From: Thermodesulfobacteriota bacterium
Lineage (GTDB): Bacteria; Desulfobacterota; GWC2-55-46; JADFVP01
Length of the DNA stretch: 64,000 nucleotides
Assembly (NCBI GenBank): GCA_046753845.1
Contig: JBHHUP010000003.1
Location: forward strand, 6,236-70,235
Reading direction: 5' to 3'
The stretch's first letter is position 1, and each line of letters opens with the position of its first letter. Shown one piece after another: positions 6,315-64,000 of the stretch. The translations under genes and the position numbers were made by a program. The notes below the pieces were generated by a model, which was not told the origin of the DNA, ran no database searches, and saw only the letters and a list, made by a program, of their open reading frames with translations.

Positions 6315-6346
6315 GGAGACCTTAGGCCGCGACCTCGGCTTTGCCG

Positions 6347-8269
6347 CTAACATCCCATCACCTCTATAGCTTTTTCTATTGCAAAACTGACACTTGGGTC
6401 AGCATCCTCATGCATGGACTTAAGTATAGGAAGGGCCCTCTCCGAGTCCATCCTCGCAAGCGCTCCCGCGGCAGCGGCCTTCACCGGAGGCTCGTCGTTA
6501 CAGAGCATATCTATAAGCGCCTCTTCAGAGCCCCTGTCAATCATCTCTCCAAGAAGGGTTACGGCGTGATAACGAACCCAGAGGCTCTTATCAGCAAGCT
6601 TACGGCGTAAAGTCTCAACAAGCTCATCTGTGGCAACGGCGTTAAGCGAATCCATAATGGCTATGCATGTATCCTCGTCACAGAGAGTGAGGCCTTTTAT
6701 TACCGGCTCCATGGCCGAGGGCGCCCCGAGCATGGCAAGGGAGACGTAAGCGGCCTTTCTCACCACGGGGTCTTCATCTTCAAGGGCCTTGATTAGCGGC
6801 TCCGTAGATGCCTCCTCGCCCATCTTCCCGAGCCCCCTGCACCCCATCTCACGCAAATTCACGCGCTCGCTGGAAAGAAGCTCAATAAACCCCGCCCTCA
6901 CCACTTCCGAGCCCATACCGGCAAGGGCGTCGGTTACCCCCTCAATTACATCCCTGTACCGTTCCCTGATAATCATGGCAAAGAGGTTATCAGCGGCCTT
7001 GTCTCCGGCTACCCGGGCTAATGTCCTCGCCGCTATCTTCCGTACATGCCCGTCTGAAGAATATATGGCCTTGTATAAAAGTTTCTCTGAGTCGGCGGAG
7101 CCTATCTCTTCAATGGCTGCCAGTATGGCCCTCACCTCATTCCTCTCGCCTCTCTCCATGGCGAGTTCAAGGGCCGGCAGGGCCTCTGCTGACCTCATCC
7201 TGCCCGTGAGTTTTATAAGTGTAATGGTATTCTTGCCGCCTTTTTTTATCCTCTCCAGTACCTCGTCCGGCAGATCAAACTCCGCGCATAGATCCCCCAG
7301 AGCACTGATTATATATTCCTCCGTATCCTCATCAAGCTCATCAAGGGCATACATAAACCTCAAGACACGGCTTATGCCTCTACAGTCTCTCAAGAGGACA
7401 AAACCCCGGAGCGCAGTCTTTCTCCTATCTATATCAGGGTCCTCAGCGGCATTATCGAAAATTTTAAAGAGCATATCTCTCAAAGTGACGAACTTATTTA
7501 CGTCCCATGAGGCAAGGGCCGCTTTTTCAAGTATCTCCACTATAGATGATACCGGCATAACGGCATCTTCCTTTATGCAATCATTAAGGGTCATGAGTAT
7601 CTCGTAAGAGTTGGAGGGGGTAGCCATCCTTGAGAGGGCATCAATAGCGGCATCCATGACCGCGCCGCTCTCTTCTCTCGCTATCTCAAGAAGAGGTTCA
7701 AGCTGCCTCACATCGCCAAGAAGCCCCATGGCCTCAACGGCGGAGAACCTCACCCACTGCTCGGCATCTCTCATGGCCTCGACTATGTACCGGGTTGCCC
7801 CGTATGGCTGAGCCCGGCCCATGTACAGGGCTACGGCGCCTCTTACATTGGCATTGGGGTGTTTTAAGAGCTCTGCGACAACAACAGAGGGCTCGGCGTC
7901 GCCTGTACCGGCGAGTATATCAACGGCGAATTTTACGGCATCATCATCTTCATCATGAAGCAGGGCCGTTACATATGGAGTTGCGCCATGGCCTGTGCTT
8001 ATGAGTATCTCTATGGCCCTGTTACGAAGCCTGGCCTCGGATCTTTTAAGCAGCGGCACCGTTGCGGCCGCCGCATCTGCCCCGCCTATCTTCATAAGGG
8101 CCTCCATAGCCGCCTCGGAGACACCGTGGTCCATATCGCCAAGGGCCCCGGCAAGGGGGCCTACAAAGCCCTTCGCATCGCTCTTCTCACCTATCTCCTC
8201 ACAGGCTACCCTGCGAATAGACGGGTCTTCGTCTTTCAGCGCCTCTAATAAACGCCCTGTATCCGGCAT
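6347..8269 (-). CDS. HEAT/PBS-lyase-like repeat protein embedded in the chemotaxis operon
   Basis: 640 aa made of repeated units such as 'DEDPSIRRVACEEIGE', 'DEDDDAVKFAVDILAGTGD' and 'DEDPVVRKAAYVSLAMLG'. No TM segment. Confidence 0.6.
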   Translation of the reverse strand: MPDTGRLLEALKDEDPSIRRVACEEIGEKSDAKGFVGPLAGALGDMDHGVSEAAMEALMKIGGADAAAATVPLLKRSEARLRNRAIEILISTGHGATPYVTALLHDEDDDAVKFAVDILAGTGDAEPSVVVAELLKHPNANVRGAVALYMGRAQPYGATRYIVEAMRDAEQWVRFSAVEAMGLLGDVRQLEPLLEIAREESGAVMDAAIDALSRMATPSNSYEILMTLNDCIKEDAVMPVSSIVEILEKAALASWDVNKFVTLRDMLFKIFDNAAEDPDIDRRKTALRGFVLLRDCRGISRVLRFMYALDELDEDTEEYIISALGDLCAEFDLPDEVLERIKKGGKNTITLIKLTGRMRSAEALPALELAMERGERNEVRAILAAIEEIGSADSEKLLYKAIYSSDGHVRKIAARTLARVAGDKAADNLFAMIIRERYRDVIEGVTDALAGMGSEVVRAGFIELLSSERVNLREMGCRGLGKMGEEASTEPLIKALEDEDPVVRKAAYVSLAMLGAPSAMEPVIKGLTLCDEDTCIAIMDSLNAVATDELVETLRRKLADKSLWVRYHAVTLLGEMIDRGSEEALIDMLCNDEPPVKAAAAGALARMDSERALPILKSMHEDADPSVSFAIEKAIEVMGC

Positions 8270-8315
8270 AGATACTCAACCTCCCGCTTATTTTACTCGG
8301 CCCTAACCTGCCCAC

Positions 8316-9140
8316 TCATATCAACTTCATATCATCGTTCACGGACCTTACCATCCTGCCCTTGAGCCTGTGCATGGCCTGACTATGGAGCTGACATACC
8401 CTTGACTCGGTAATCTCCATGACACGGCCAATTTCTTTAAGCGTAAGCTCATTAAAATAATAAAGCGATACAATGAGCTTCTCTTTCTCCGGCAATGAGT
8501 CCACAAGGGTTGCCAGAGTGCTTTGCAGCTCGCTGAACCTCGCAAAGGCCATGGGGTCGGCCCCGTTGGGGTCTTCAATACACTCGAGTATGTCCATCTT
8601 GCTGTCATTATCAGGGACAAGGTCCTCGATGTGAATAAGACTGTAGGCGCTCACCTTGCTGAGCATCCCCCGGAGCGCCTCCACGGAGAGGTCAAGAAAC
8701 TCCGCCACGTCCTGTTCGCTTGCCGGGCCGCCGGTGCGCCTCTCAATCTCACCGTAGGCCCTTTTCAGCATATTGGACTTTTCACGCATGGAGCGCGTCA
8801 TCCAATCCATGCCTCGAAGCTCATCCATGATAGCCCCTCGTATCCTTATCGACGCATAGGTCTTAAACTTTATACCCCGTGAGGCGTCAAACTTATCAAT
8901 AGACTCAAGGAGCCCTATGGTGCCGGCGCTCATCAGGTCATTTACATCGATATGAGGCGGCAGATGAACGGCTATGTGATGGGCGATTATCTTCACCAGC
9001 CTTATGTTCTCCAGCATGAGGCTCTCCCTCTCGGGTTCCGCAATGAGAGAGACTCTCTTTTTGACTGACGTCTTTTTCATATTGCCTGACCTCAGGCGTC
9101 CTCTTGAAGGCGCCTTGCTTTTATTTATTTGTGTTTTCAT
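8316..9140 (-). CDS. fliA: flagellar sigma factor FliA (sigma-28)
   Basis: Sigma70 region 2 'YASIRIRGAIMDELR' and region 4 HTH 'LTLKEIGRVMEITESRVCQLHSQAMHRL'. ATGA overlap with flhG. Confidence 0.85.
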   Translation of the reverse strand: MKTQINKSKAPSRGRLRSGNMKKTSVKKRVSLIAEPERESLMLENIRLVKIIAHHIAVHLPPHIDVNDLMSAGTIGLLESIDKFDASRGIKFKTYASIRIRGAIMDELRGMDWMTRSMREKSNMLKRAYGEIERRTGGPASEQDVAEFLDLSVEALRGMLSKVSAYSLIHIEDLVPDNDSKMDILECIEDPNGADPMAFARFSELQSTLATLVDSLPEKEKLIVSLYYFNELTLKEIGRVMEITESRVCQLHSQAMHRLKGRMVRSVNDDMKLI

Positions 9141-10075
9141 AACGTGTCCACCTGCGTATTGAGCATGTTTTTCCAGAACAACTGCATCCCGCCCTTGGGA
9201 TCCCTCGCCGCGGGCATGCTCAGGAGTTTCTCTGATATTCCCTTGATACAGCGGCTCGCCGGGGTATCGGGAAACATCTCTACAACGGCCCTCTGATTTA
9301 TCACGGCACGGGAGACCTTATCGTCCTGTACCACGCATCCCAGGTACTCAAGAGAGACGTTGAGAAACCTGCTCGCAACGAGGCTTATGATGCTGTATAT
9401 ATTCTTTCCCTCCTTCTCACCGCGCGCTGTATTTACAAGGAGCTTAAAACTCTTCTCCCCGTGTTTTTTCATAAGCACCTTCATAAGGGCGTAGGCATCG
9501 GTAAGGGAGGTAGGCTCAGGCGTTACTACCACTACTATCTCCTGCGCCGCGGTATTAAAGAACATCACGTTATTTGAGATTCCTGCACCCGTGTCTATCA
9601 TCATGATGTCAACGTCCTTATCAAGCATCTCCATGCTCGATGCCAGCGAGAGCCTCTGCTCGGCGTTAAGGTTCGTCAGCTCGGAGATTCCCGATGCGGC
9701 GGGTATGACCATAATGCCTCCCGGCCCCCTTATGATGACGTCCTCTATCTTTTTCTCGCCCCGCAGCACATGGTTAATATTGTATTTCGGGGACAAGCCA
9801 AGCATTACATCAAGGTTGCAGAGACCAAGGTCCGCGTCAAAGACAAGGACCCTCTTGCCTTTTTTTGCAAATGATATGGCTATATTTACAACGCAGCTTG
9901 TCTTTCCAACGCCTCCTTTACCGCTTGTTACGGATATAACCCTGACGAGGCCGCCTTTTTTACCTCCTTTAGGCACCGGTTCCTTCTCTGCAGCATCCCT
10001 ATCGGCGGCACTCTTAACAACAGCGGCTTTTTTCAGACCTGAATTTTTATCCTCAGCAATTTCTTTCATACCCAA
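9137..10075 (-). CDS. flhG: flagellar number regulator FlhG/FleN (MinD/ParA ATPase)
   Basis: Deviant Walker A 'VTSGKGGVGKTS'. MinD-like. Confidence 0.85.
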   Translation of the reverse strand: MGMKEIAEDKNSGLKKAAVVKSAADRDAAEKEPVPKGGKKGGLVRVISVTSGKGGVGKTSCVVNIAISFAKKGKRVLVFDADLGLCNLDVMLGLSPKYNINHVLRGEKKIEDVIIRGPGGIMVIPAASGISELTNLNAEQRLSLASSMEMLDKDVDIMMIDTGAGISNNVMFFNTAAQEIVVVVTPEPTSLTDAYALMKVLMKKHGEKSFKLLVNTARGEKEGKNIYSIISLVASRFLNVSLEYLGCVVQDDKVSRAVINQRAVVEMFPDTPASRCIKGISEKLLSMPAARDPKGGMQLFWKNMLNTQVDTL

Positions 10076-40182: not shown

Positions 40183-40214
40183 GACCCCCAATGACGATCA
40201 TCGGGGGTCTTTTG
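40183..40214 (+). terminator. rho-independent terminator after motB2
   Basis: GACCCCCaatgacgatcatcGGGGGTC followed by TTTTG. Confidence 0.65.
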
Positions 40215-40337: not shown

Positions 40338-40919
40338 TTAGTGAGTACCGGCATCTTTCTTATTCGAACCGCTCCGTATCATCCTTCTCTGCCAGGCGAA
40401 GATATACCGCACAATTCTCTCCCTTACCCTGTCATCCATATCCACAAACTTTATCCCCACCTTCCATCCCCCCTCGATATTATCGCATACCCAGACGACC
40501 TCTCCTGTGACATCAAGGTCCTGGGTCTGATTAGGGAGAAATAATTTTATCGCAAGCTCATCGCCCTCACTGAACTGCTTATTGCATAGAATCTTAATAC
40601 CTCCGCCGCTTATGTTATCTATACGGGCCTCGGGTATCTCAAAACAGCGTTCGCTGGTGGTCTGCGTAAGGAGCTTTTTCAGCTTCTGGTTTATCTCAAT
40701 CAGAAGATCGTACATATCAGGGTCGTCTGAGGAGATGGCCTCCACCTTTCTTGCAAAGGACCTCAGCTCCCGGATATTCACGGCGGTATCTGTAATATTG
40801 ACACCTTGTTTTGCCACATAATACATGGGTATACTGTCATCTATTCTCACATACTCGCGATTATTAGAAATCATGCCAACCATGTACATCACCTCTTCTC
40901 TTTCATTGACATTATCCAT
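40338..40919 (-). CDS. PilZ-domain protein (YcgR/MotI-like candidate c-di-GMP flagellar effector)
   Basis: 193 aa. 'RIDNISGGGIKILCNKQFSEGDELAIKLFL...GEVVWV...GIKFVDMD' matches the PilZ (D/N)xSxGG barrel motif. No canonical RxxxR motif at the usual spacing. It is the last gene of the flagellin-fliD-fliS operon. Confidence 0.5.
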   Translation of the reverse strand: MDNVNEREEVMYMVGMISNNREYVRIDDSIPMYYVAKQGVNITDTAVNIRELRSFARKVEAISSDDPDMYDLLIEINQKLKKLLTQTTSERCFEIPEARIDNISGGGIKILCNKQFSEGDELAIKLFLPNQTQDLDVTGEVVWVCDNIEGGWKVGIKFVDMDDRVRERIVRYIFAWQRRMIRSGSNKKDAGTH

Positions 40920-43152: not shown

Positions 43153-43995
43153 CTACCTTAAGAGCTGCAGCGCGCTCTGAGGCAGTGTATTAGCCTGAGC
43201 AAGTACGGAGATACCTGCCTGAACCATTATCTGGTTCTTTGTGAAAGTGGCCGTCTCCGAGGCAAAGTCAGCATCTCTTACCCTGGATTCAGCGGCCTGG
43301 AAGTTAGTGAATGTTACCTGAAGGTTCTGCAGCGCAACGTTAAGCCTGTTTGTTGTGGCGCCGTATACGGCCCTTGCGCTGTTGATTCTGTTAAGAGCGA
43401 CGCTTACGGCATCAAGGGCGTTAAGCGCGCCCGTTACGCTTGAGAGGGCTCCGGCGGAGAGACTGAGACCTACGTTACCGGTAGCGCCCGCGCTTGTCAG
43501 GGCGACAAGGCTTACACTGAGCTGGTTGTCAACTGAGTTCTTAAAACCAATAAACATGGTAAGCGAGGAGATGGAGCCGTTAAGGAGCTTGAAGCCTCCG
43601 AACTCCGTTGTACCGGCGATCCTGTCTATCTCGCTTATGAGTTTATCGTACTCATCCTTAAAGAACGTTCTTGCATTGGAATCAAGGGTTCCCTGTGCGG
43701 CGCTGGCAGCAAGCTCACCCATCCTTGTAATGATGCTTGTAACCTGCTCAGCGGCCTTATCACTTATTTCCATCGCGCTTACGCCGTCATTGACGTTCCG
43801 CATGGCGGCCTGAATCATCCTGGACTGACTGCGGAGCTGGTCGGCTCTTGCAAGTCCGGCGGCGTCATCAGCAGAGCTGTTTACCCTGTGACCCGATGAC
43901 AGCCTCTGAACGCTTATCTTCAACATCGCGTTCGAAGAGCTGATGTTCTGCTGCGCCAGTAGTGAAGCTATGTTGGTATTAATCGTTAAAGCCAT
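43153..43995 (-). CDS. fliC: flagellin (short D0-D1-only type, 280 aa)
   Basis: N-terminal 'INTNIASLLAQQNISSSNAMLKISVQRLSSGHRVNSSADDAAGLA' and C-terminal 'ESRVRDADFASETATFTKNQIMVQAGISVLAQANTLPQSALQLL'. Confidence 0.9.
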   Translation of the reverse strand: MALTINTNIASLLAQQNISSSNAMLKISVQRLSSGHRVNSSADDAAGLARADQLRSQSRMIQAAMRNVNDGVSAMEISDKAAEQVTSIITRMGELAASAAQGTLDSNARTFFKDEYDKLISEIDRIAGTTEFGGFKLLNGSISSLTMFIGFKNSVDNQLSVSLVALTSAGATGNVGLSLSAGALSSVTGALNALDAVSVALNRINSARAVYGATTNRLNVALQNLQVTFTNFQAAESRVRDADFASETATFTKNQIMVQAGISVLAQANTLPQSALQLLR

Positions 43996-44152: not shown

Positions 44153-44788
44153 TCACATATCGCCTCGGCTGAAGACCTTTTCCTCCATTTCTTTAAGGAG
44201 CGGTGTCAACTCATATTCGAGTATATCGGCAAGAAGCACATTATCGAGGGCCAGCCTCGCGTCCTTTAACGCAGACATATTCCGCAGTATATCCTCGTAA
44301 TAGGTTAGGGGATTTTCTTTAAATACATCTATGCTGTAAGCAAGGCCGCATTTATAGAGCGCGTCCATGGTCCTTACCATCTCTCCGGTGCTCTCAATAA
44401 TAGCGCCAAGGTAGTTATCTATCTCGCCTGAGCCGCGTCTGAGCGCGCCTGTCATATTCATCGCGAGCTCGCAGATAAAGGTAATGTACTCGCCAACAGT
44501 GTATATACCCTGCAGTACAACGTGGTCAATGCCGCTCGTAAAGAGCCGTAACTCGCCATAGCTTTTAAGGGGCTTATTAATAGCAGAGGCGTCCTTCCAC
44601 AAAGCGCCCTCGTTTCTGCCGTCAACCCATAACTCCATAATAAAACGCCTTAAGGGTTTTAAATCAGACTCCACGGCATCAACAAGATCGCCTACGGTAG
44701 AGCTTACTTTTACGCCGCTAAAATCCAGCCGGGCATCGTCAAGGTATATTTCCGTAATCATAGGAGACTCCTTTCTTGCTTTTTTCAC
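44153..44788 (-). CDS. hypothetical protein translationally coupled (ATGA) to the Maf-family gene
   Basis: 211 aa. No recognizable motif. 4-nt overlap with the upstream maf-like gene. Confidence 0.4.
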   Translation of the reverse strand: MKKARKESPMITEIYLDDARLDFSGVKVSSTVGDLVDAVESDLKPLRRFIMELWVDGRNEGALWKDASAINKPLKSYGELRLFTSGIDHVVLQGIYTVGEYITFICELAMNMTGALRRGSGEIDNYLGAIIESTGEMVRTMDALYKCGLAYSIDVFKENPLTYYEDILRNMSALKDARLALDNVLLADILEYELTPLLKEMEEKVFSRGDM

Positions 44789-46701
44789 TTTTTATTAACA
44801 GCAACCGGCATCTCTGCTTGCCCCTCCAAATTCAAGCACCGAACCTTTTTAAGGGCATCTGATATCTTGGGCAGGAAAAGAAGACACATCTTACGTACCT
44901 CCTTGTATGTGCGTATAGTACGATCGATATCCTTTCTGAACTGGTCTTCTGTTGAGCTCTCCTCATCCTCTTTCAGGTACTCCTTAAGGTCGTATGTATA
45001 CTCAACAAGGGCCTCCCAGAGAAAAGAGACCTCGCAGACAGCCTTAAAGAGCCTGCGTTCCTTTCTCCTTATCCTGTCAAGTTTACCGCTAAGCTCGGTA
45101 CGAAGCCCCCTGGATATAAAATCAACCTTAAGTACGCCGGCCCCCTTGATTATCTCCCCGGAGAGTTTTTCAACAATTCTTACCCTGTCTCGAAGTTTTG
45201 TAAAAGACTCTATAAGCCCTCTTATGTCTACATCAGGGGGCGTGCTCTCGCTTTGATGAAGTATCTTGTCCACGTCTACGGGTTTTTGCAGGTGCCTTCT
45301 GATAACCTCTTTGAGGGTTGTATGCTCCATGCCCTTTATAAAGGCCCCGCCCTCAGTGGCGTTGTATACACGGATTGAGGGAAACTGCTCTTTAAGCAGC
45401 GCAGTATAACGCTCAAACCACTGATGAAAGGTTACCCAGTCGTATTTGCTCGCTACGGGTTCACCGTTAAAACCTTGCAGCCACAGCAGCTTATGCGTAA
45501 TAGTACGCCGGTGACCTGATATATAATGCTCTTTTACACTGACAAGCCCCTTATCCTTGTCAATGGATATCCTCTGCTTATCGTAAACGCCTCCGCCAAC
45601 GTGGGTCATGTTTTTATCAAAGGCAAGATCCTGGCCGAGAAATATTATAGGGTCGCAGCCGAACATTACGCCCATATCAAACATGGCCGTAGTTACGGAG
45701 CCGCCGATTGATACAAAGGACTTACTCCCCCAGAGGCGCGCCTGCTGAAGGCTCAAGGCGATAAAGGGGCTGTAGAAGATAAATTTACCATGGGCTTCGC
45801 GCTTGAACATCTCCGGATGCGAGACCTCTGAGAGTATAAGGCGTATCTTTTTATCGGCCTCACCGCCGTCAAAGTATTCATCAAGATTAACTTTTTCTCC
45901 TGATATTACCGCGTGCGGCACGATACCGTAGCTTAGCAGGCTCTTATAAGCGGTTACGGCGGAGACTATAAAGGCCTTGTCTTTTAGCTCCGCAAGAAGT
46001 GATACGTTTTTTCGAAGCGATGGCCCGGCACCTACGATAATCATGGGAACGCCCTTGAATTGGTCACGCATAACATCTACAGAGGGATAGACAGGAAAGG
46101 CGTCGAGGTTGGCGAAATAATTCATCAGCCAGTCCAGCCTTGAGTCTATCTCTGTCTTTATGCCAACCATCTGCGAGGTATGGGCGTTCTGTATCTTAAC
46201 GAGAAATTCCTTAAGCTCACCCTGGAAGGTCAACCTGTAAGGCATGGTGTGGTAGCCGATGATACTGTCAACCCCTTCTGTAAACTGCTGAACCCGTGCG
46301 ATAAAGGGCCCTATATAATTTGCAAGGTAGACCCTCTGTCCGGAGAATTCTTTACTGAGGTCTATCTTCATAAGCACAGCCTTTAGTATCTCCATAGAGG
46401 GCTCATAGATAAAAATTTTCTGTGTGCCGCGCTTTAAGAGGGTAGACATAAGGTAACCGCATCCGAGTCCGAATAAGGCCACGGAGTCGGGTTTCTTGCC
46501 GAGTATCTCTTCGGCCTGCTCGTCAGCCTCCTTCCACGGCCCGTACTGGCTGTTAAAGAGGCGTCCCTTGTAGGAGAGGACAAACTCCTTATTCTTACCT
46601 CTGTAGATCTTGGCTACGTCCTTATTAAAGGCGCGCAGTCTCTCGGCGAGGATGCTGTCCTGTTTTGCTATGGCGGCGCAGTTAGTCTCGAAAATACTCA
46701 T
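44785..46701 (-). CDS. maf: motility-associated factor (Maf/DUF115 family) putative flagellin nonulosonic-acid glycosyltransferase
   Basis: 638 aa. The central 'GVPMIIVGAGPSL...NATEGGAF' MptE/DUF115-like core is typical of Campylobacter/Helicobacter/Aeromonas Maf proteins. Adjacent to flagellin and the pse genes. Confidence 0.65.
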   Translation of the reverse strand: MSIFETNCAAIAKQDSILAERLRAFNKDVAKIYRGKNKEFVLSYKGRLFNSQYGPWKEADEQAEEILGKKPDSVALFGLGCGYLMSTLLKRGTQKIFIYEPSMEILKAVLMKIDLSKEFSGQRVYLANYIGPFIARVQQFTEGVDSIIGYHTMPYRLTFQGELKEFLVKIQNAHTSQMVGIKTEIDSRLDWLMNYFANLDAFPVYPSVDVMRDQFKGVPMIIVGAGPSLRKNVSLLAELKDKAFIVSAVTAYKSLLSYGIVPHAVISGEKVNLDEYFDGGEADKKIRLILSEVSHPEMFKREAHGKFIFYSPFIALSLQQARLWGSKSFVSIGGSVTTAMFDMGVMFGCDPIIFLGQDLAFDKNMTHVGGGVYDKQRISIDKDKGLVSVKEHYISGHRRTITHKLLWLQGFNGEPVASKYDWVTFHQWFERYTALLKEQFPSIRVYNATEGGAFIKGMEHTTLKEVIRRHLQKPVDVDKILHQSESTPPDVDIRGLIESFTKLRDRVRIVEKLSGEIIKGAGVLKVDFISRGLRTELSGKLDRIRRKERRLFKAVCEVSFLWEALVEYTYDLKEYLKEDEESSTEDQFRKDIDRTIRTYKEVRKMCLLFLPKISDALKKVRCLNLEGQAEMPVAVNKK

Positions 46702-46732
46702 ATCAATACCCCGTACTTTTTACCATGGCAGG

Positions 46733-48823
46733 TTACATTACCTTCTCTGCCATGACCTTGAATCTTACCTCGTTAATTCCTCGCCATACCCAATAGGCCG
46801 TATCATCAACCTCGCCAGCGGAGTGATAGAGGCGCAGAAAAAACTCATTACCGGGTTCGCTGTAATTTATCATGGGCACGGTGTGCACAATGTTGCGCTC
46901 CGAAGATATGCATAGGGTCTTTTTCCTGTCCCCAAAGCTTACCCATCCTTCCGTGGCCCCAAGACAGCTTGTGCCCGATATGGCCGGGCTTACGGGCTTC
47001 GCGTGAGAGAGACTGCGACCGCTTAAGCTGAACCTCTCAGGCCCCGTACCGCCGTTAATGGTCTCGAACCACAGGTCTTTCTTATCAAAGGCCCCGGGCA
47101 TAAGCGTAAATATACCGAGGCGCAGGCTTGAAGCCGCCAGTCCCCGTGCCGTCAGCCTGTAGCTTAGAGTAAATTCATCCCCGCCCCGGGGGATTTGATA
47201 CTCCTTTACAAGCCTGCCTATGGACGTATCAATTACCGCGCTTATACGCACCCCGGCCTCGTCTTCAATCACAGTTGGCACGACAGGCACAAGGTCCGTA
47301 GTCTTTGTGCCGGCTCGGTCCGTATGTATGAGATGCCCTGAAAAAAAATCGGCCCCGAGCTCAATGGAATCAAAGTAACCGTGCCCGAGGGTGCCGAGCA
47401 GAGGCCGCGCTGAGACATGGGGAAAAAGAACCGAGGCAAGGGCAAGGCCCCTGTCTTTCAAAAACTCAATCTCAACCCTGCCGGTGGAGATGCGAAGGCG
47501 CCTTGCGTCCTCGTAGACCCTGACCTTGCTCCTGCCCGCCAGAGCCCTTGCCCCCTTTACAGGTAAAGAGAAGGCCACGCCCCCTGTGGTGCCCGTAGCG
47601 CGGAGCGCCCCTTCCTGTACAATGGATTCACTTCGCGCGAGATCCATGGAACCTTCAAGAGTAAGGTTTTTCCCTCTCTCCAGAAGACCGGCCTTGGAGA
47701 TTAGAGACCTGGTCTCAAAACTCAGCCACCCCAGTCGTTCGTTTAAATAAGCGAGCTTATCATCAGTGGTGTTTGTACGAAAATCACTGCCCCAGACCTC
47801 ACATAGCATCTCACACAGCTCACCCCTCCCCCGTAGCGCGCCCCCTGCCTCAAGGGCCAAAAGCTTCTTATATACACCGAGACACCGCGCGTTAAGATGG
47901 GCGCTGTCCCTACCCGTGACGCTCCACCTTAGCGGGTTGTACCGCTCCTGCTTCTTGCATACAATGGGCGTCTCCGTTGATTCAAGCCTTATGGGCGGGG
48001 CGTCGGAGCTACCCTTGAATTGACGTAGAATTTCCTCTGGCCTTAAAAGGGCAAATCTCTTCTCCATTATCAGCCCCTTTAAGAGCTCTCTTATCCTCTT
48101 AAAATCCCCCCGCGGCATCCGGCCGAGCCCCGGCCTGTAATCAAAGACCTCGGCGTCATTGGAATAGGCCACAAAGGCCCTCTCCTGCTCCTTATTATAA
48201 TGAGAGAGCAGATACTCTCTGTATTCTCTGGTAGATAGCTCGCCGCTGACGCATCGGCCAAACTTCTGAAAGGCTATGGAGTTTGACCATAGCAGCCCCA
48301 TGGACTCGCCGGGAAGCCTTCCGGCGGCCCTCTGCGGCGAGTACATAATCTCCGGCGCATACTCGTTATGACGGGAGCAGTTATTCCAGTCCATGATTAA
48401 GGCATCATAACCGGCCTCTTTATATAACCCCACAAGCCCGGCAGAAAAGGTCTGCTCATTGACAAGGGCTACTGATGGGCTAAACCCGAGAATTTCCTCG
48501 TAATACTTATTGCCAAGCTCAAGGTTCCATCTGTTAACCCCGGCCGGAATTAGAGGCATAATTGACTGAGCGTAACCTGAGCCGATAAAACTCATCCTGC
48601 CCGACCTTAATAACTCCTTAAGGCCTCGGGTAAAGGCCGGGTCTATGCTTTGAACCTCGCGAAGGGTCCATGCAGGCATCTCAATGGCGATAGGAATCCC
48701 CTCCTCGGCCATACGAAGTAAGGGCCAATAGCAGTTTTTGATAACAACAGGAAACTCCTCTCTCGCTATGAGAGAAAAAGCCAGATTGCAGTGAAATAAT
48801 ACGTAAAGGTTAAGCCTTGCCAT
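46733..48823 (-). CDS. large protein with a GH57-like N-terminal domain, function unknown
   Basis: 696 aa. The N-terminal 'LNLYVLFHCNLAFS' block resembles the GH57 / (beta/alpha)7 glycoside-hydrolase-like fold. The C-terminal half is uncharacterized. Co-operonic with maf. Confidence 0.35.
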   Translation of the reverse strand: MARLNLYVLFHCNLAFSLIAREEFPVVIKNCYWPLLRMAEEGIPIAIEMPAWTLREVQSIDPAFTRGLKELLRSGRMSFIGSGYAQSIMPLIPAGVNRWNLELGNKYYEEILGFSPSVALVNEQTFSAGLVGLYKEAGYDALIMDWNNCSRHNEYAPEIMYSPQRAAGRLPGESMGLLWSNSIAFQKFGRCVSGELSTREYREYLLSHYNKEQERAFVAYSNDAEVFDYRPGLGRMPRGDFKRIRELLKGLIMEKRFALLRPEEILRQFKGSSDAPPIRLESTETPIVCKKQERYNPLRWSVTGRDSAHLNARCLGVYKKLLALEAGGALRGRGELCEMLCEVWGSDFRTNTTDDKLAYLNERLGWLSFETRSLISKAGLLERGKNLTLEGSMDLARSESIVQEGALRATGTTGGVAFSLPVKGARALAGRSKVRVYEDARRLRISTGRVEIEFLKDRGLALASVLFPHVSARPLLGTLGHGYFDSIELGADFFSGHLIHTDRAGTKTTDLVPVVPTVIEDEAGVRISAVIDTSIGRLVKEYQIPRGGDEFTLSYRLTARGLAASSLRLGIFTLMPGAFDKKDLWFETINGGTGPERFSLSGRSLSHAKPVSPAISGTSCLGATEGWVSFGDRKKTLCISSERNIVHTVPMINYSEPGNEFFLRLYHSAGEVDDTAYWVWRGINEVRFKVMAEKVM

Positions 48824-48857: not shown

Positions 48858-50438
48858 TTACGGGTATCTCTCACTCATCTTAAGTAGATCGTACTTTACA
48901 AACATGCCCGATGTCTCGTAGAGGACTTTTAGGAATATGGGCCTCTTTCTGCGCCATACATCGCTAATGTATCTGGGTGCGGCAGCGGGGTTTGACTTTA
49001 TGAGGTGATGGGTGCGGTCGGCCTCAACAATGGTCTCAATGTACTTCGAGGTAAAATCCCCTGTCGTAATATTCGGTTTTACCACCTCGAGCTTATCGTA
49101 GCTGAAGCCATCGGAAAACAGGCCCTCGGTCTCGCACCTCTTGAATAACTCCGTGCCCGGCAGAGGAGTAGCGATGTAGATTTCCCTGCTGTCAAATAAA
49201 CCGCTGTAGTTGGCCATGTACAGTGACCTTCTGATGTCCTTTTTTGTCTCTCCTGGCAGGCCTATGACAAAGGTTCCCGTAAGGTGCACGCCTTTTTTTC
49301 TCGCATACCGCAGCACCTCCATGGCCTTTGTTAACTTAAGAGGTTTTTTAACTACCCTTGTAAGCACCTCCTGAACACCTGACTCTATGGCAAAACCCAT
49401 TGAGGTACATCCTATCTCCATTAGTTTATCGATAAGCTCCTCATCCATGCACCAGAGCGCGAGGACCATGAAGTGAATCTCAAGTTTAAAACCCTGCCTC
49501 TTGAACTGGTCGCAGAACTCCTTTGCACGGGCCTTGTCATGGGTGAAGTTATCGTCTATTATCATGAGTTTTTTTATCTTGTATCTGTCTACCAGAAAAC
49601 GTATCTCAGCGAAAACCTCGTCGAGCTTACGGGCCCGAAACCTCCGCCCCATGGTGCGGTGCACGGAGCAGAAGACGCATGTCCCGGCGCACCCTCTGGT
49701 GGTAAGCACCGTGGGCATGGCCTGAGGCTCGCCCCAGGTAACCTTATTGGGTTTATAGTTACTGGAATATTTTTCGTATGGAAATAAATGCCATGCAGGG
49801 TAGGGCAGCGCGTCAAGGTCGGCTATAAAGGGACCCTGTGCGTTATTTACCACCGCCTCACCGTCTCTCCAGACAAGGCCCGGAACAGTACCGTATGAAG
49901 GGACATCGTTCTCTTTATTATCCTTATTATCGCTACTCTCTTTACCGCAGTCGCACTTTGCGCAGCCCTTGCAGTTATCACCGATGGCCCGTAGAAGAGC
50001 TGGAAAAGAAAGCTCTGCCTCACCCTTTAAGACAAAGTCTATTGCCCTGTTCTCCATAACCTCCTCTGCCATGGAGGTTGGATGATTGCCGCCCACTACT
50101 ACGACTGCCTCGGGCAGCATCTCCTTTACAAGGCAAGCCGTCTCGTTCATTGAGCCCACCATTACAGAAAAATTACAGCTAATACCCACAAGGTCGGGTG
50201 AGAATTTTTTAATCCTCTCCCTTACCTCATCCATGGGTATACCAACATCCACATATCCCTCTGTAAGAGGCGCATCTCTATCAAGGCCCTCGGTCTGGCA
50301 ATCAAGTATGGCTACGGTATAACCTTCGGCCTCAAGCACGGAGGCAAGGTACATAATCCCCATCGGCGGGTAGACGATGCGTTGGCCCGAGGTGGCTATC
50401 TTCATATTAGGCTGTAAAAGAAGTATCCTCTTTATCAT
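48858..50438 (-). CDS. B12-binding radical SAM enzyme
   Basis: 526 aa. N-terminal cobalamin-binding-like Rossmann region 'VVVVGGNHPTS'. CX3CX2C cluster 'TTRGCAGTCVFCSV'. Confidence 0.75.
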   Translation of the reverse strand: MIKRILLLQPNMKIATSGQRIVYPPMGIMYLASVLEAEGYTVAILDCQTEGLDRDAPLTEGYVDVGIPMDEVRERIKKFSPDLVGISCNFSVMVGSMNETACLVKEMLPEAVVVVGGNHPTSMAEEVMENRAIDFVLKGEAELSFPALLRAIGDNCKGCAKCDCGKESSDNKDNKENDVPSYGTVPGLVWRDGEAVVNNAQGPFIADLDALPYPAWHLFPYEKYSSNYKPNKVTWGEPQAMPTVLTTRGCAGTCVFCSVHRTMGRRFRARKLDEVFAEIRFLVDRYKIKKLMIIDDNFTHDKARAKEFCDQFKRQGFKLEIHFMVLALWCMDEELIDKLMEIGCTSMGFAIESGVQEVLTRVVKKPLKLTKAMEVLRYARKKGVHLTGTFVIGLPGETKKDIRRSLYMANYSGLFDSREIYIATPLPGTELFKRCETEGLFSDGFSYDKLEVVKPNITTGDFTSKYIETIVEADRTHHLIKSNPAAAPRYISDVWRRKRPIFLKVLYETSGMFVKYDLLKMSERYP

Positions 50439-51688
50439 CAGAGAGCCATCCTTAATGGTTTTTCCGTTATAATCTCCACAGCTGATATGGCACGGGCCGC
50501 CCTTGCCGCCGCCTCTTCCCTTGAGTCCCCCGTGGCTATTACCATGCCGGCGCGCCCGGGGTGCGAGACCACGGGAGAGAGGGTATCGCCCTCGTGCACA
50601 TAAAACCTCATTATCTTAATCCCAGGTATGTTCTCAAAGTCAGCGGCGCGGCGTATCTCTTTTACCACCCCCGACTCAGGAAACCAGAACCTCTGCGAGA
50701 CAAATCTCGTGAAATCAGCCCTGTAATCATCTGCCTTTAGACTTACTCCAAGGGCCAGCAATAAGGCCGCCTCTACAAGATTCACCCCCGTTGATAAGGG
50801 GATGGTATGGGTGCAGAAGTACCCGCCGCTAAGCCTTGTAGCCGCCTCTATAAGCACAGGGCCGCTGCCCGTCATTACGATATCGCCCTTAATCGTCCAG
50901 TTATCCATACCAAAGGCGCGGGCCACCTTTAGTATTACCTTGTCTATGGCAACAAGCTCACCGGGCCAGTGACGGGCCGGCAGGTCTCCGCCGTTCTCAA
51001 TGACATAAGGGGCGAACCTGGCGAGATGCTCATAGTTTCTGTCCGATAACCCCGGTGTAGCCACCACACCATCTGCGATAAGGGACTCCGTGCTTACCTG
51101 CTCACCCTCTACCCATTCCTCGGCCATGACACGGCCCGAGGGCGAGTTCTTAAGGGCCTCAGAATAGGCCCACGATGGCTCAACGCCCTCACTCAGCCGC
51201 ACTACGCCCCGTGCCCCCCGGCTGTCAACGGGTTTTACTACAAGGGGCCTCTCCCTCTCCCCCATAAAAACCTTAAGCTCCTCAGCCCCCTTTACAAGGG
51301 CAAACCACGGCACAGGCACGCCCATCTCTTTAAAGGCCTTCTTCATAAGAAACTTATCACTTGCTATGCGCGCTGATTCCACGGAAGGCCCGGGCAGCCC
51401 CAATTCCTCTGCTACTAAGGCTACTGTCATTGGCACATCAGCGGCCGCAGAAATAACACCATCAATGGGTGTACCTTTATTAGATGCCCGCGCAAGCCTC
51501 AGGGTCTCTTCCGCATCATATGTGCTCGCCACGATGGCCTCATGGGCAATGGCAAGACCGGGGGCAGCAGGGTCTCCATCAGATACCACGACTCGAAGGC
51601 CCATCTCACGGGCGCACTCTATAATGGGCAGGGCCTCTACGCCGCCTGAGATTATAAGAATATTTTTTCCCCTTACATTCACGGGCAT
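50438..51688 (-). CDS. ATP-grasp family ligase
   Basis: 416 aa. PreATP-grasp then ATP-grasp ('LVVKPVDSRGARGV', 'AEEWVEGEQVSTESL'). Overlaps neighbouring genes, so operonic. Confidence 0.7.
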   Translation of the reverse strand: MPVNVRGKNILIISGGVEALPIIECAREMGLRVVVSDGDPAAPGLAIAHEAIVASTYDAEETLRLARASNKGTPIDGVISAAADVPMTVALVAEELGLPGPSVESARIASDKFLMKKAFKEMGVPVPWFALVKGAEELKVFMGERERPLVVKPVDSRGARGVVRLSEGVEPSWAYSEALKNSPSGRVMAEEWVEGEQVSTESLIADGVVATPGLSDRNYEHLARFAPYVIENGGDLPARHWPGELVAIDKVILKVARAFGMDNWTIKGDIVMTGSGPVLIEAATRLSGGYFCTHTIPLSTGVNLVEAALLLALGVSLKADDYRADFTRFVSQRFWFPESGVVKEIRRAADFENIPGIKIMRFYVHEGDTLSPVVSHPGRAGMVIATGDSREEAAARAARAISAVEIITEKPLRMAL

Positions 51689-52731
51689 ACAACCACCTTT
51701 ACGGCCTTTGATGTCTTTTTATTAAAGGCGATATCAAAACCGTCCATTATATCTCCAAGTGCCACTTTATGCGTTATAAGCGAGTCTGCCTGCACCAGCC
51801 CGTCAGCAAACAGCCCAAGGGACTTCACAAAGTCACGCCTCCTATAACGCTGCGAGCCGCGGATCTGAATCTCTTTTTCCGTGAGATTCTTCAGATTCAT
51901 CCTCGGCGTCTCGTAATGAACGCCTGAGAGGATAATAATCCCCCCTGCCTCAAGGGCCGCTATTGAGGTAGTTATGGAATCACTCCCATAACCTCCCGCT
52001 GTCTCAAAAGCCAGGTTAAAGCAATCCTCACGACTTAACTCCTCATCACACTCGGCCTCGGGGTCAAGTGCCCTATCAGCGCCCATGGTGATGGCGAGCT
52101 CTCTTTGATAATCATGCCTTCCAAGGGCCGTCACATATGAGGCCCCTGCGAGCTTAAGGGCCCTGATGGTAAGGAGCCCCAGAGTGCCGCATCCTATGAC
52201 AAGGGCCCTTTTTCCGGCTACTGCTCCGGCCACGGAGAGGGCATGAAGAGCATCAGCAAAGGGCTCTACAAGGACGGCCTCATCAAAAGTGAGTTCATCC
52301 GGTATCTCAAAGACATTTGCCGCGGGCAGGGCAACCATATCGGCAAAACCGCCGGGACGGTTAAAGCTCACAAAGGTCGCCTTCCTGCATAGATTTTTTC
52401 GTCCCGCCTTACAGAGAGAGCAGCTCTGGCATGGCACGAGAGGCGAGAGGCAGACTCTTGTGCCCGCCTTCAACCCCCTTACGCCGCGGCCCCTCTGCTC
52501 TACAATACCGCTTATCTCGTGGCCTGCCCAGTACACGGGCACAGGCGGGTCGCGGTAAAAGATATTAAGGTCGCTCCCGCATATGCCGCATGCCTTTACA
52601 CGAATTAGGACCTCGCCTTTTTGCGGCCCGAAAAAACTCCAACGCCGCACCCCAAGCTCACCGGGTCCGTTAAATACGGCGGCCCTAAGCTCCAGACGCT
52701 CTTCTGATCTCTTCTCTAAACATGTACTCAC
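51679..52731 (-). CDS. Zn-dependent alcohol dehydrogenase (MDR; sorbitol/threonine dehydrogenase-like)
   Basis: 'ACGICGSDLNIFY' with 'GHEISGIV' and a GxGxxG Rossmann 'VIGCGTLGL'. The called start overlaps the FSA gene; the true start is probably an internal non-ATG codon. Confidence 0.75.
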   Translation of the reverse strand: MSTCLEKRSEERLELRAAVFNGPGELGVRRWSFFGPQKGEVLIRVKACGICGSDLNIFYRDPPVPVYWAGHEISGIVEQRGRGVRGLKAGTRVCLSPLVPCQSCSLCKAGRKNLCRKATFVSFNRPGGFADMVALPAANVFEIPDELTFDEAVLVEPFADALHALSVAGAVAGKRALVIGCGTLGLLTIRALKLAGASYVTALGRHDYQRELAITMGADRALDPEAECDEELSREDCFNLAFETAGGYGSDSITTSIAALEAGGIIILSGVHYETPRMNLKNLTEKEIQIRGSQRYRRRDFVKSLGLFADGLVQADSLITHKVALGDIMDGFDIAFNKKTSKAVKVVVCP

Positions 52732-53377
52732 GTCCCGGCACCTCCTCCCAGTCTTTTAAGAACTTCTCAAGGTCCATATCAGTCATGGTATTAAGGAGCA
52801 TCTTCTCAAGGATAACAAAAGGCACGGTTGCGATATGAACACCGGCCTTTGCTATCTCAACTATCTGATGAGGGTCGCGAATGCTCGCGGCTATTACCTC
52901 GGTCTTGGAGTCATGACGCAGTAAGGCATCCATAAGCTCACGCACCATGCCAAGGCCGTCGTAGCCCCTGTCCTCAAGGCGGCCGATAAAGGGACTGACA
53001 TAATCAGCTCCGGCCATACTGGCAAGAAGTGCCTGTGTGGGTGAGAATACAAGCGTAAGGTTGGTCTTTACTGACTCGCCGCGAAGCAGCGTCAATGCCT
53101 CCATGCCCGCGGGGTTGGCCGGAAGCTTCACAACAACGTTACGTGATATCTCCGATAGCTTTCTTGCCTGATCGGCCATGGCCTCGCCTTCTCTATCCAC
53201 TACCTCAAGGCTTACGGGCATGGGATATACGGTCTCGCATATCTCTGTTGCAAGTGAGCAAAAATCCCTCTTCTGCCTTGAGATAATAGATGGATTTGTC
53301 GTTATACCGCTTAGCACTCCCCAAGACTTTGCCCTTTTTATCTCTTTAATATCAGCTGTATCTAAGAATAACTTCAT
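52685..53377 (-). CDS. fructose-6-phosphate aldolase / transaldolase (TalC/FSA subfamily)
   Basis: 230 aa. 'MKLFLDTADIKEIK...GVLSGITTNPSI' and the Schiff-base Lys region 'VVVKLPAN'. SD GGAGGA 5 nt upstream. Confidence 0.8.
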   Translation of the reverse strand: MKLFLDTADIKEIKRAKSWGVLSGITTNPSIISRQKRDFCSLATEICETVYPMPVSLEVVDREGEAMADQARKLSEISRNVVVKLPANPAGMEALTLLRGESVKTNLTLVFSPTQALLASMAGADYVSPFIGRLEDRGYDGLGMVRELMDALLRHDSKTEVIAASIRDPHQIVEIAKAGVHIATVPFVILEKMLLNTMTDMDLEKFLKDWEEVPGREYMFREEIRRASGA

Positions 53378-53441
53378 ACTAATCCTCCATATTTATAGGC
53401 CTTGTTAACTTCGCTCTCCTTCCCGCCTGCTCCACCGCTTT

Positions 53442-53542
53442 ATCGCGCCTGCCCCCCCTGTTGCACTCTACCTTTTCTGTCCTGCCCCACTTCGCGCCCT
53501 ACCCCCTCCCCACCCTGCACCTTCGCACCCTGCCCCCTCCCC
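53442..53542 (-). other. G-run-rich repeat element on the transcribed strand in the 200-nt ADH-FSA intercistronic gap
   Basis: Plus strand holds three copies of tcgcRcc(c)tRccccctcccc (53442-53460, 53491-53511, 53522-53542). On the mRNA these are GGGGAGGGGG(C/T)AGGG(C/T)GCGAA, that is many G3-G7 tracts. Confidence 0.5.
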
Positions 53543-53577
53543 TTTTTCATCACCACATCAGCCCCCTTTAAAGCCCA

Positions 53578-63296: not shown

Positions 63297-64000
63297 CGCG
63301 ATCAAACTCCCTGATGATTTTGTTGAGTTGAAACCTGTCGAGTTTTTTCTCGTTAGTATCACTGGAAAAAATAAAACCCTCTGGAACCTTGGAGCCGTCT
63401 GTCTGTTTTTCTTCGCTCCACCAGGAAAAGTGCGGCTGCACAACAAAGTGGTCATCATACTCAAGCGTAAGCCTGCCGTCCTCTTTTGAGATAAGAACCT
63501 CGTGGAGTTTCTCCCCTGGACGTATGCCTATAAGGTCGAACTTGCACTCAGGGACAATGGCCTTTGCCACATCTACTATGGGGGTGCTCGCTATCTTGGG
63601 GACAAAGATCTCGCCGCCGCGCATACGCCCAAGAGATTTCAGGACAAAATCAGCGCTCTGCTCAAGGGTTATCCAGAACCTTGTCATCCGCATATCCGTA
63701 ATAGGCATAACGCCCGTCTTTTTCATCTTCAGGAATAATGGTATGACGCTGCCGCGGCTCCCGGCTACGTTGCCGTAACGTACTACGGAAAAACGCGTGG
63801 GTTTACTGCCGGCGTAGGAGTTACCTGATACAAATAGTTTATCGGAGCATAGCTTTGTGGCGCCGTAAAGATTAACGGGGTTAACGGCCTTGTCTGTAGA
63901 GAGTGCCACAACCTTCTTAACGCCGCTGTCCATGGAGACATCTATTATGTTTTTCGCTCCCAGTATATTGGTCTTAATGACCTCAAAGGGGTTATACTCC
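63229..64000 (-). CDS. pseB: UDP-GlcNAc 4,6-dehydratase (inverting) PseB/FlaA1, 5'-truncated by the window edge
   Basis: The reading frame stays open to the window end ('EYNPFEVIKTNILGAKNIIDVSMDSGVKKVVALSTDKAVNPVNLYGATKLCSDKLF'). C-terminal half of an SDR-extended dehydratase. Confidence 0.8.
   Translation of the reverse strand, partial: EYNPFEVIKTNILGAKNIIDVSMDSGVKKVVALSTDKAVNPVNLYGATKLCSDKLFVSGNSYAGSKPTRFSVVRYGNVAGSRGSVIPLFLKMKKTGVMPITDMRMTRFWITLEQSADFVLKSLGRMRGGEIFVPKIASTPIVDVAKAIVPECKFDLIGIRPGEKLHEVLISKEDGRLTLEYDDHFVVQPHFSWWSEEKQTDGSKVPEGFIFSSDTNEKKLDRFQLNKIIREFDRGAKKTYRIRRPNNRRRGYKVCT

Follow-up and report, generated by a model that had tools for sequence, protein, structure and literature searches.

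A GH57-like protein and a probable GlfM-type Maf adaptor in a flagellin glycosylation locus of a Thermodesulfobacteriota bacterium

The DNA described here is a 64,000-nucleotide (nt) stretch, referred to below as the window, of a metagenome-assembled genome (MAG) of a Thermodesulfobacteriota bacterium, in which the genes of interest all lie on the minus strand and are transcribed from high to low coordinates. Three open reading frames (ORFs) drawn attention to in an earlier note are its main subject: one for a 696-amino-acid (aa) protein resembling glycoside hydrolase family 57 (GH57), one for a 638-aa Maf-family protein, and one for a small protein, here called the orphan, which is 211 aa long as the ORF is called mechanically. 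Their coordinates, lengths and common strand were confirmed (Table 1), and the 696-aa protein has a 100 % identical counterpart among the MAG proteins of NCBI. Along the direction of transcription the genes run from PseB, PseC, NeuB, a cytidylyltransferase, a class-III aminotransferase, a GFO/IDH oxidoreductase and a PseG-like protein, through two S-adenosylmethionine (SAM) methyltransferases, a zinc-dependent alcohol dehydrogenase (Zn-ADH), a fructose-6-phosphate-aldolase (FSA)-type enzyme, a further Zn-ADH, an ATP-grasp ligase and a B12-binding radical SAM enzyme, to the GH57-like protein, Maf and the orphan, and a sigma-28 promoter is then followed by flagellin, FliD, FliS, a FliT-like protein and a PilZ protein.

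The GH57-like stop codon and the Maf ATG are separated by 31 nt, as the earlier note had stated, and no convincing terminator was seen between the GH57-like gene, Maf, the orphan and the sugar operon genes; the three genes form part of one long sugar operon. The sigma-28 (FliA) consensus TAAAGTTT-N11-GCCGATAA has a single exact match in the window (0 expected by shuffling), which starts 9 nt past the orphan stop and upstream of the flagellin gene, so that flagellin has its own late promoter.

Table 1 Features of the GH57-like, Maf and orphan locus and of the neighbouring flagellin and sugar-synthesis genes (positions in the window)
Feature	Position	Strand	Basis or remark
GH57-like protein, 696 aa	46733..48823	-	Pfam PF03065
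GH57 (beta/alpha)7 catalytic barrel, residues ~1-280	47984..48823	-	Profile alignment, AF2 model
C-terminal beta-sandwich, residues ~432-696	46736..47530	-	AF2 secondary structure, pLDDT
Predicted nucleophile E123, codon	48455-48457	-	
Predicted acid/base D223, codon	48155-48157	-	
Maf, 638 aa, putative flagellin nonulosonic-acid glycosyltransferase	44785..46701	-	MptE-like, Maf_flag10_N, NCBIfam PseD domain
Orphan, 202 aa from ATG 44761	44153..44761	-	Mechanical GTG ORF extends to 44788 (211 aa)
Orphan beta-grasp (ubiquitin-like) domain, residues 1-77	44531..44761	-	AF2 strand/helix order E-E-H-E-E
Orphan four-helix bundle (DUF8042/GlfM-type), residues 78-196	44174..44530	-	AF2, hhalign
Orphan D179, codon	44225-44227	-	
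Orphan E182, codon	44216-44218	-	
Sigma-28 (FliA) promoter, TAAAGTTT-N11-GCCGATAA	44118..44144	-	Exact consensus match
Flagellin, 280 aa, presumed Maf acceptor	43153..43995	-	Flagellin_N 4.3e-36, Flagellin_C 1.3e-22
B12-binding radical SAM enzyme	48858..50438	-	B12-binding 1.3e-23, Radical_SAM 1.3e-20
ATP-grasp ligase, L-amino-acid-ligase type	50438..51688	-	LAL_C2 7.2e-18, ATP-grasp_3
Divergent PseG-like protein (UDP-sugar hydrolase family), 343 aa	56876..57907	-	NCBIfam TIGR03590
Cytidylyltransferase	60209-61075	-	Pfam
NeuB-family synthase	61054-62097	-	Pfam
PseC aminotransferase	62094-63464	-	NCBIfam PseC 454.8 bits, cutoff 423.5

The GH57-like protein is the more interesting part of the finding. 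The resemblance of its N-terminus to GH57 proposed in the earlier note is borne out by a match of residues 20-270 to Pfam Glyco_hydro_57 (PF03065; 7.2e-15, 55.5 bits against a cutoff of 21.2 bits), a domain carried by 119 of 120 homologs among the matches listed. A single-sequence search of the PDB returned a best E-value of only 0.19, and the family profile matched the Thermococcus litoralis 4-alpha-glucanotransferase (PDB 1k1w) with an E-value of 1.3e-10. The AlphaFold2 (AF2) model (predicted local distance difference test (pLDDT) 85.6, predicted template-modelling (TM) score 0.86) comprises a barrel and a helical region, with a disordered linker (residues 384-431) ahead of a C-terminal beta-sandwich; its top Foldseek match is 1k1x (GH57, E 1.2e-24), other GH57 structures follow at 1e-9 to 1e-11, and the best whole-model TM-scores, normalised to the query, are with GH38 mannosidases (0.58-0.68).

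In the alignment to the T. litoralis enzyme, E123 falls on its E123 (WLTERV), the known nucleophile (conserved sequence region 3), and D223 and E225 on its D214 and E216 (HDDGEKF), of which the Asp is the acid/base (conserved sequence region 4). H11, E123, D223 and E225 are invariant in 24 diverse homologs of 36-67 % identity, as are seven polar residues of the C-terminal domain (H481, D492, D510, N590, D632, E671 and D673). The canonical GH57 conserved sequence region 1 (CSR-1) motif at the first strand is H-Q-P; in the present family this region reads F-H-x-N-L-A-F-S (H11, N13), and the window protein has H-C-N, not H-Q-P. By sequence and predicted fold, with the family model, catalytic pair and barrel present and the H-Q-P of CSR-1 replaced, the 696-aa protein is classed as a true GH57 homolog. 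It is predicted to be cytoplasmic, since the first barrel strand, not a signal peptide, makes up its N-terminus. A reading of the barrel as a carbohydrate esterase family 4 (CE4)-type deacetylase was also considered and is unlikely, only one His being invariant in the barrel.

The family comprises more than 799 proteins and occurs in at least 555 representative species, bacterial and archaeal, and a search of the literature for GH57 proteins in nonulosonic-acid or flagellin glycosylation loci found none. Its gene neighbourhoods were inspected at 80 genome loci from many phyla, with neighbours clustered without preselection. The resulting clusters include ATP-grasp proteins (61 of 80 loci), SAM methyltransferases (46), PseG-like proteins (44), Maf (37), short-chain dehydrogenases/reductases (36), class-III aminotransferases (22), NeuB (21), KduI (17) and the split transketolase subunits (13-14); neither an acetyltransferase nor a classical glycosyltransferase was among the top 30 clusters. 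Among loci whose GH57-like protein shares at least 44 % identity with that of the window, the order is GH57-Maf-orphan-flagellin: Maf was found downstream at 32 of 32 loci, the orphan, always between maf and flagellin, at 31 of 31, and flagellin at 24 of 25. Maf begins 3-83 nt past the GH57-like gene in about 30 loci, almost all of this close clade. The co-occurrence of the three genes, which the earlier note had offered as a check, is thus kept in relatives of this clade, and the refuting condition that the note had set does not hold.

Below 44 % identity the picture is different, with Maf at 5 of 35 loci and the orphan at none of 35. The distant loci (33-40 % identity) come from Acidobacteria, Gemmatimonadota, Patescibacteria, Vampirovibrionales, Dehalococcoidia, Planctomycetia, Methanothrix, Methanocalculus and Thermoplasmata, with non-flagellar examples in Patescibacteria, Acidobacteria, Methanothrix, Methanocalculus and Thermoplasmata, and they keep the ATP-grasp ligase, methyltransferases, PseG-like protein, class-III aminotransferase, CMP-transferase and NeuB. 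Across phyla, no neighbour accompanies the GH57-like gene more constantly than the ATP-grasp ligase: at nearly all loci with enough flank it lies upstream on the same strand, often abutting or overlapping the GH57-like gene, and the slot between the two varies, being filled by the B12-binding radical SAM gene in the window and by KduI or nothing in other loci. The smallest unit seen, in a Vampirovibrionaceae MAG (locus L059, 6949-12298), comprises NeuB, a 599-aa CMP-transferase::PseG-like fusion and a 774-aa GH57-like protein, with no ATP-grasp gene nearby.

The GH57-like clade travels with nonulosonic-acid synthesis genes rather than with Maf, and adjacency to Maf is confined to one clade. 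Because distant relatives mostly lack Maf and retain ATP-grasp, methyltransferase, PseG-like and NeuB genes, the GH57-like protein is read as a component of nonulosonic-acid tailoring and not as a Maf partner. The earlier note had suggested that it could be a second, non-Maf glycosyltransferase, a trimming enzyme or an enzyme with another acceptor; as a Maf-linked role on flagellin, this is not supported by the occurrence of the family elsewhere without Maf or flagellin. The note had also called such a protein unexpected in a flagellin glycosylation operon, but it is no peculiarity of this operon and is widespread in nonulosonic-acid tailoring cassettes. At one non-flagellar GH57/ATP-grasp locus (L009/L010, 10925-12274) the second gene downstream of GH57, past a methyltransferase, encodes a DUF4910/DUF2172/HTH_47 protein, of what we take to be the domain family of C. 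jejuni Cj1295, linked to di-O-methylglyceroyl-pseudaminic acid (Pse).

The orphan was said in the earlier note to be overlapped by Maf at an ATGA, and no such overlap exists: the mechanical ORF starts with GTG and gives a GTGA overlap. The start is likely the ATG at 44761, since it is preceded by an AAGGAG Shine-Dalgarno sequence, nearly all homologs begin at the matching residue, and the resulting 202-aa protein is that of the NCBI annotation; a 23-nt spacer then separates it from the Maf stop. Neither the orphan nor its homologs matched the local copies of Pfam and NCBIfam, and a single-sequence search of the PDB gave nothing useful. The name orphan is nevertheless too strong: the family has at least 429 cluster representatives, and homologs carry precomputed Pfam hits to TP0873_N (N-terminal domain) and DUF8042, weak in the close homologs and strong in distant members (P0176 and P0192).

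The AF2 model of the orphan, built from the family alignment (pLDDT 86), shows an N-terminal beta-grasp domain followed by a C-terminal four-helix bundle with helices at residues 78-109, 114-141, 152-170 and 174-196. In Foldseek searches the beta-grasp domain gave partial matches that include ubiquitin and UBX/UBL domains, and the bundle matched generic four-helix bundles only. Conservation is strongest in the last helix (D-x-V-L-L-A-D-I-L-E-Y-E-L-x-P), and 29 diverse members, with identities of 27-41 %, all share R108, D173, D179 and E182. The profile of the orphan family aligned by hhalign with standalone 114-116-aa Planococcaceae DUF8042 proteins over residues 78-193 (90.8 % probability, E 1.2e-6), and its hidden Markov model matched a Geobacillus 119-aa DUF8042 protein with 56 bits (E 2.6e-15); on these profile comparisons the bundle is judged homologous to DUF8042 proteins.

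A word-indexed search found only 18 homologs of the orphan, and an exhaustive profile search gave the 429 cluster representatives (E <= 0.001), nearly all about 200 aa long and matched end to end. Metagenomes were scanned with a degenerate DNA motif (A-D-x-L-E-Y-E-x-x-P), which yielded 120 stretches, 102 of them with a true member and 104 members in total. Within 6 kb of the 104 members lie flagellin (43), FliD (31), Maf (23) and GH57 (1). Many members stand directly upstream of flagellin on contigs where no Maf was detected, one member of 25 % identity sits between FliD and Maf, and bundle-only versions of 86-121 aa directly adjoin Maf genes. On one metagenome contig (L173, 6600-7999) two tandem beta-grasp + DUF8042 genes lie between Maf and flagellin.

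One bundle-only metagenome version is identical to the Geobacillus protein WP_033843057.1 (Pfam DUF8042). In Geobacillus genomes this DUF8042 protein is encoded between a 594-aa and a 447-aa Maf, beside flagellin genes, and in Solibacillus the DUF8042 gene is likewise flanked by two Mafs. This arrangement, with the DUF8042 gene between a long Maf (562-595 aa) and a short one (397-447 aa), lies at 6248-9700 in Geobacillus (L217/L218) and at 6296-9543 in Solibacillus (L216), and in Firmicutes one DUF8042 adaptor may serve two Mafs.

GlfM, described by Unay, Kint and Viollier on bioRxiv, is a small four-helix-bundle protein encoded downstream of Maf-2, which it binds and bridges to flagellin and which needs it for flagellin binding and glycosylation (10.1101/2023.12.03.569772). 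In S. oneidensis it is SO_3260, in G. kaustophilus the adjacent genes GK_3129 and GK_3130 encode Maf-2 and the GlfM ortholog, and the essential residue, D77, belongs to the last helix and is followed by a conserved Glu at +3 (10.1101/2023.12.03.569772). Kurthia and Pseudomonas 3E13 also have validated GlfM proteins. The Geobacillus DUF8042 protein occupies the position assigned to GK_3130, next to the Maf-2 GK_3129. The earlier suggestion that the orphan is a specificity or chaperone partner of Maf is supported by the DUF8042 homology, by this position and by the Asp motif of the last helix, and the orphan is very probably a Maf adaptor of GlfM type that bears an additional beta-grasp domain.

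The 638-aa protein, called Maf in the earlier note, matches Pfam MptE-like (1.4e-33), Maf_flag10_N (1.2e-07), the NCBIfam PseD domain (1.1e-35) and, weakly, the structure 5mu5 of M. magneticum Maf, and is without a tetratricopeptide repeat (TPR) domain. With a MAF_flag10 / MptE-like catalytic domain, a Maf N-terminal domain and a place beside flagellin and nonulosonic-acid genes, it is assigned to Maf from its domain matches and context.

The remainder of the operon is a nonulosonic-acid island. The reading frame of PseB is open to the window end, and its apparent truncation is the window edge. The PseG-like protein scores 7.3e-28 and 98 bits against TIGR03590 PseG, below the 153.55-bit cutoff, and the best NCBIfam match of the B12-binding radical SAM enzyme is the Sden_1168 P-methyltransferase family, far below cutoff. 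No PseH-type acetyltransferase was seen in the island with the Pfam and NCBIfam scans; in place of PseH, 48858-63464 (minus strand) holds the ATP-grasp ligase, the two methyltransferases, the FSA-type aldolase, the two Zn-ADHs, the class-III aminotransferase and the GFO oxidoreductase. The absence of PseH, together with an aldolase/ketol-transfer enzyme, reductases, methyltransferases and an amide-forming ligase, suggests that the product is a Pse-like sugar with a non-acetyl N-acyl group, possibly an O-methylated hydroxy-acyl. Glyceroyl and di-O-methylglyceroyl derivatives of Pse occur in Tannerella and Campylobacter. At the other end of the locus, the PilZ-domain gene (40338-40919, minus strand) ends the flagellin-fliD-fliS-fliT operon, a position kept in three relatives (L001, L006 and L007), and is followed by a strong intrinsic terminator with a 12-bp stem and a T-run (40183-40209, minus strand).

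Taken from the observed homologies, conserved residues, predicted folds and gene neighbourhoods, the binding partners, substrate and reaction that we infer divide the genes into two separate functional pairs, Maf with the orphan and the GH57-like protein with the ATP-grasp ligase, which are neighbours here by happenstance; this explanation is held with moderate confidence. In the first pair, the DUF8042 bundle of the orphan would bind Maf through the last helix bearing the invariant D179-x-x-E182 and would enable the TPR-less Maf to engage flagellin, which would be O-glycosylated in the cytoplasm with a pseudaminic-acid-like sugar before it is exported, and the beta-grasp domain would offer a second protein-binding surface, for flagellin or for Maf. 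In the second, the GH57-like protein would be a cytoplasmic, catalytically competent retaining glycosidase or transglycosylase in a cassette that makes or tailors the activated nonulosonic-acid donor. Its closest partner would be the ATP-grasp ligase, and the other members of the cassette would be the methyltransferases, the PseG-like protein, ketol-transfer and reductase enzymes, NeuB and the CMP-transferase. Its substrate would then be a sugar intermediate of the pathway and not flagellin, and the leading guess is that the enzyme cleaves or transfers an alpha-linked hexosyl or nucleotide-sugar-type intermediate, feeding or following ATP-grasp acylation. Two points weigh against this account of the GH57-like protein: the immediate GH57-Maf junction in about 30 loci also fits a direct link to Maf, and to our knowledge GH57 enzymes act on alpha-glucans or alpha-galactosides only.

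That junction would also suit a GH57-like protein that acts as a second, non-Leloir transglycosylase and extends the glycan on flagellin or, in non-flagellate organisms, on other acceptors, perhaps through attachment of a hexose to the nonulosonic acid or to its side chain. The closest solved relative, the T. litoralis 4-alpha-glucanotransferase, is a transferase, both catalytic residues are retained, classical glycosyltransferases are missing from the top 30 neighbour clusters, and the minimal NeuB / PseF-PseG / GH57 unit offers no other candidate transferase. The constant partners, however, are the ATP-grasp ligase and sugar-synthesis genes and not an acceptor or Maf, a retaining glycoside hydrolase requires an activated glycoside donor and none is evident in the loci, and GT4 and Glyphos_transf glycosyltransferases are present in non-flagellar loci; we regard this role as unlikely, though not negligibly so. 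The tight coupling to the ATP-grasp gene, with its frequent overlap, could instead mean that the fold was recruited to another task, as an amidase or deacetylase that frees an amine for the ligase, as a nucleotide-sugar hydrolase, or as a non-catalytic scaffold of the ligase. The missing PseH-type acetyltransferase, which suggests a non-acetyl N-acyl group, and the many invariant polar residues of the C-terminal domain speak for such recruitment, and the superfamily of 7-stranded barrels includes deacetylases. It is nevertheless rather improbable, as conservation falls exactly on the Glu/Asp pair of GH57 enzymes instead of a His-His-Asp metal site, a single His is invariant in the barrel, and a PseG-like hydrolase is already encoded in the island. 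Membership of Pfam GH57, whose characterised members act on alpha-glucans, might also suggest an ordinary glycogen or starch housekeeping enzyme that lies beside flagellin glycosylation genes by chance. This is hardly tenable and is effectively refuted by synteny: nonulosonic-acid or tailoring genes surround the GH57-like gene in 80 of the 80 loci inspected, no glycogen genes are among the conserved neighbours, CSR-1 has H-x-N, and the protein is far from the solved GH57 enzymes in the single-sequence search.

For the orphan, the question is whether it serves Maf at all or is another flagellin-directed factor, for instance a regulator or a chaperone of export or assembly, whose place upstream of flagellin says nothing of Maf. 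Flagellin and FliD are commoner metagenome neighbours than Maf, many members precede flagellin with no Maf detected on the contig, and the beta-grasp domain (TP0873_N-like) is an N-terminal addition absent from the validated GlfM proteins. Absence of Maf is weak evidence because most of those contigs are short, and bundle-only versions stand directly beside Maf; moreover, nothing in the orphan family is better conserved than the motif on which Maf binding by GlfM depends, and hhalign found no profile similarity to FliS (10 % probability) or FliT (0.6 %). We therefore consider a role apart from Maf quite unlikely. The GlfM-type reading has several points of its own to answer. The orphan is 202 aa long and GlfM 89 aa (89-119 aa for DUF8042/GlfM-type proteins), the conserved F24-R25 pair of GlfM becomes L107-R108 at the candidate position of the orphan, and the partner Maf is the 638-aa long form where the Maf-2 of GlfM has 441 aa. 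Pairwise BLAST of the orphan with the Geobacillus protein aligns the last helix only. The link to GlfM is built on position, fold, motif and the Geobacillus-type profile match and not on direct alignment. The similarity to FliS and FliT that the preprint claims for GlfM by HHpred (10.1101/2023.12.03.569772) was not detected for the orphan with hhalign.

A bolder reading, put forward only tentatively, is that the GH57-like protein represents a new functional class in the GH57/GH38 fold and, as a separate matter, that beta-grasp + GlfM is the common environmental form of the Maf adaptor. The enzyme would then carry out, with the ATP-grasp ligase, an unrecognised step in making or transferring modified nonulosonic acids, on a substrate such as a nucleotide-sugar or acidic-sugar intermediate, and hundreds of lineages of Bacteria and Archaea would employ it for surface glycans, flagellar or not, and the beta-grasp domain of the adaptor would supply recognition of flagellin. 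Sialic-acid-like sugars on flagellin and surface glycans affect motility, immune recognition and phage attachment, and the enzymes that diversify them are poorly known. In more than 555 species, archaea among them, such pathways regularly include a GH57-fold enzyme whose catalytic pair is intact; knowledge of its reaction would close a gap in the biochemistry of nonulosonic acids and take GH57 beyond alpha-glucans. The result for the orphan would extend the three-component system of Maf, GlfM and flagellin to Thermodesulfobacteriota, would tie GlfM to Pfam DUF8042 and TP0873_N in a two-domain form that is widespread, and would make the beta-grasp module a direct handle on how acceptor specificity is encoded.

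Among known systems, the T. litoralis 4-alpha-glucanotransferase shares with the GH57-like protein a (beta/alpha)7 barrel and C-terminal beta-sandwich, a similar length and an aligned Glu/Asp catalytic pair, and differs from it in sequence (about 13 % identity), in CSR-1 (H-Q-P against H-x-N) and in context, which is alpha-glucan metabolism for the T. litoralis enzyme and nonulosonic-acid biosynthesis for the GH57-like protein. The GH38 alpha-mannosidases (Bl_Man38A, PDB 7ufu) have the same architecture of barrel, helical region and beta-sandwich, but the GH57-like protein has no GH38 Pfam match and no His/Asp zinc-site pattern, and its catalytic residues are of the GH57 type. The window Maf shares its MptE-like (MAF_flag10) catalytic domain and its Maf N-terminal domain with the Maf/PseD enzymes (C. 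jejuni PseD; M. magneticum Maf 5mu5) and, like them, adjoins flagellin and Pse-type genes; its 123 bits against the NCBIfam PseD cutoff of 670 make it a distant member of the family, of putative donor specificity. The orphan, like GlfM (SO_3260 and GK_3130), is encoded directly downstream of Maf in a flagellar/nonulosonic-acid locus, has a four-helix bundle as predicted by AF2, and carries in its last helix an Asp with a Glu at +3 (D179/E182) that corresponds, as matched by pattern and not by direct alignment, to D77/E80 of GlfM.

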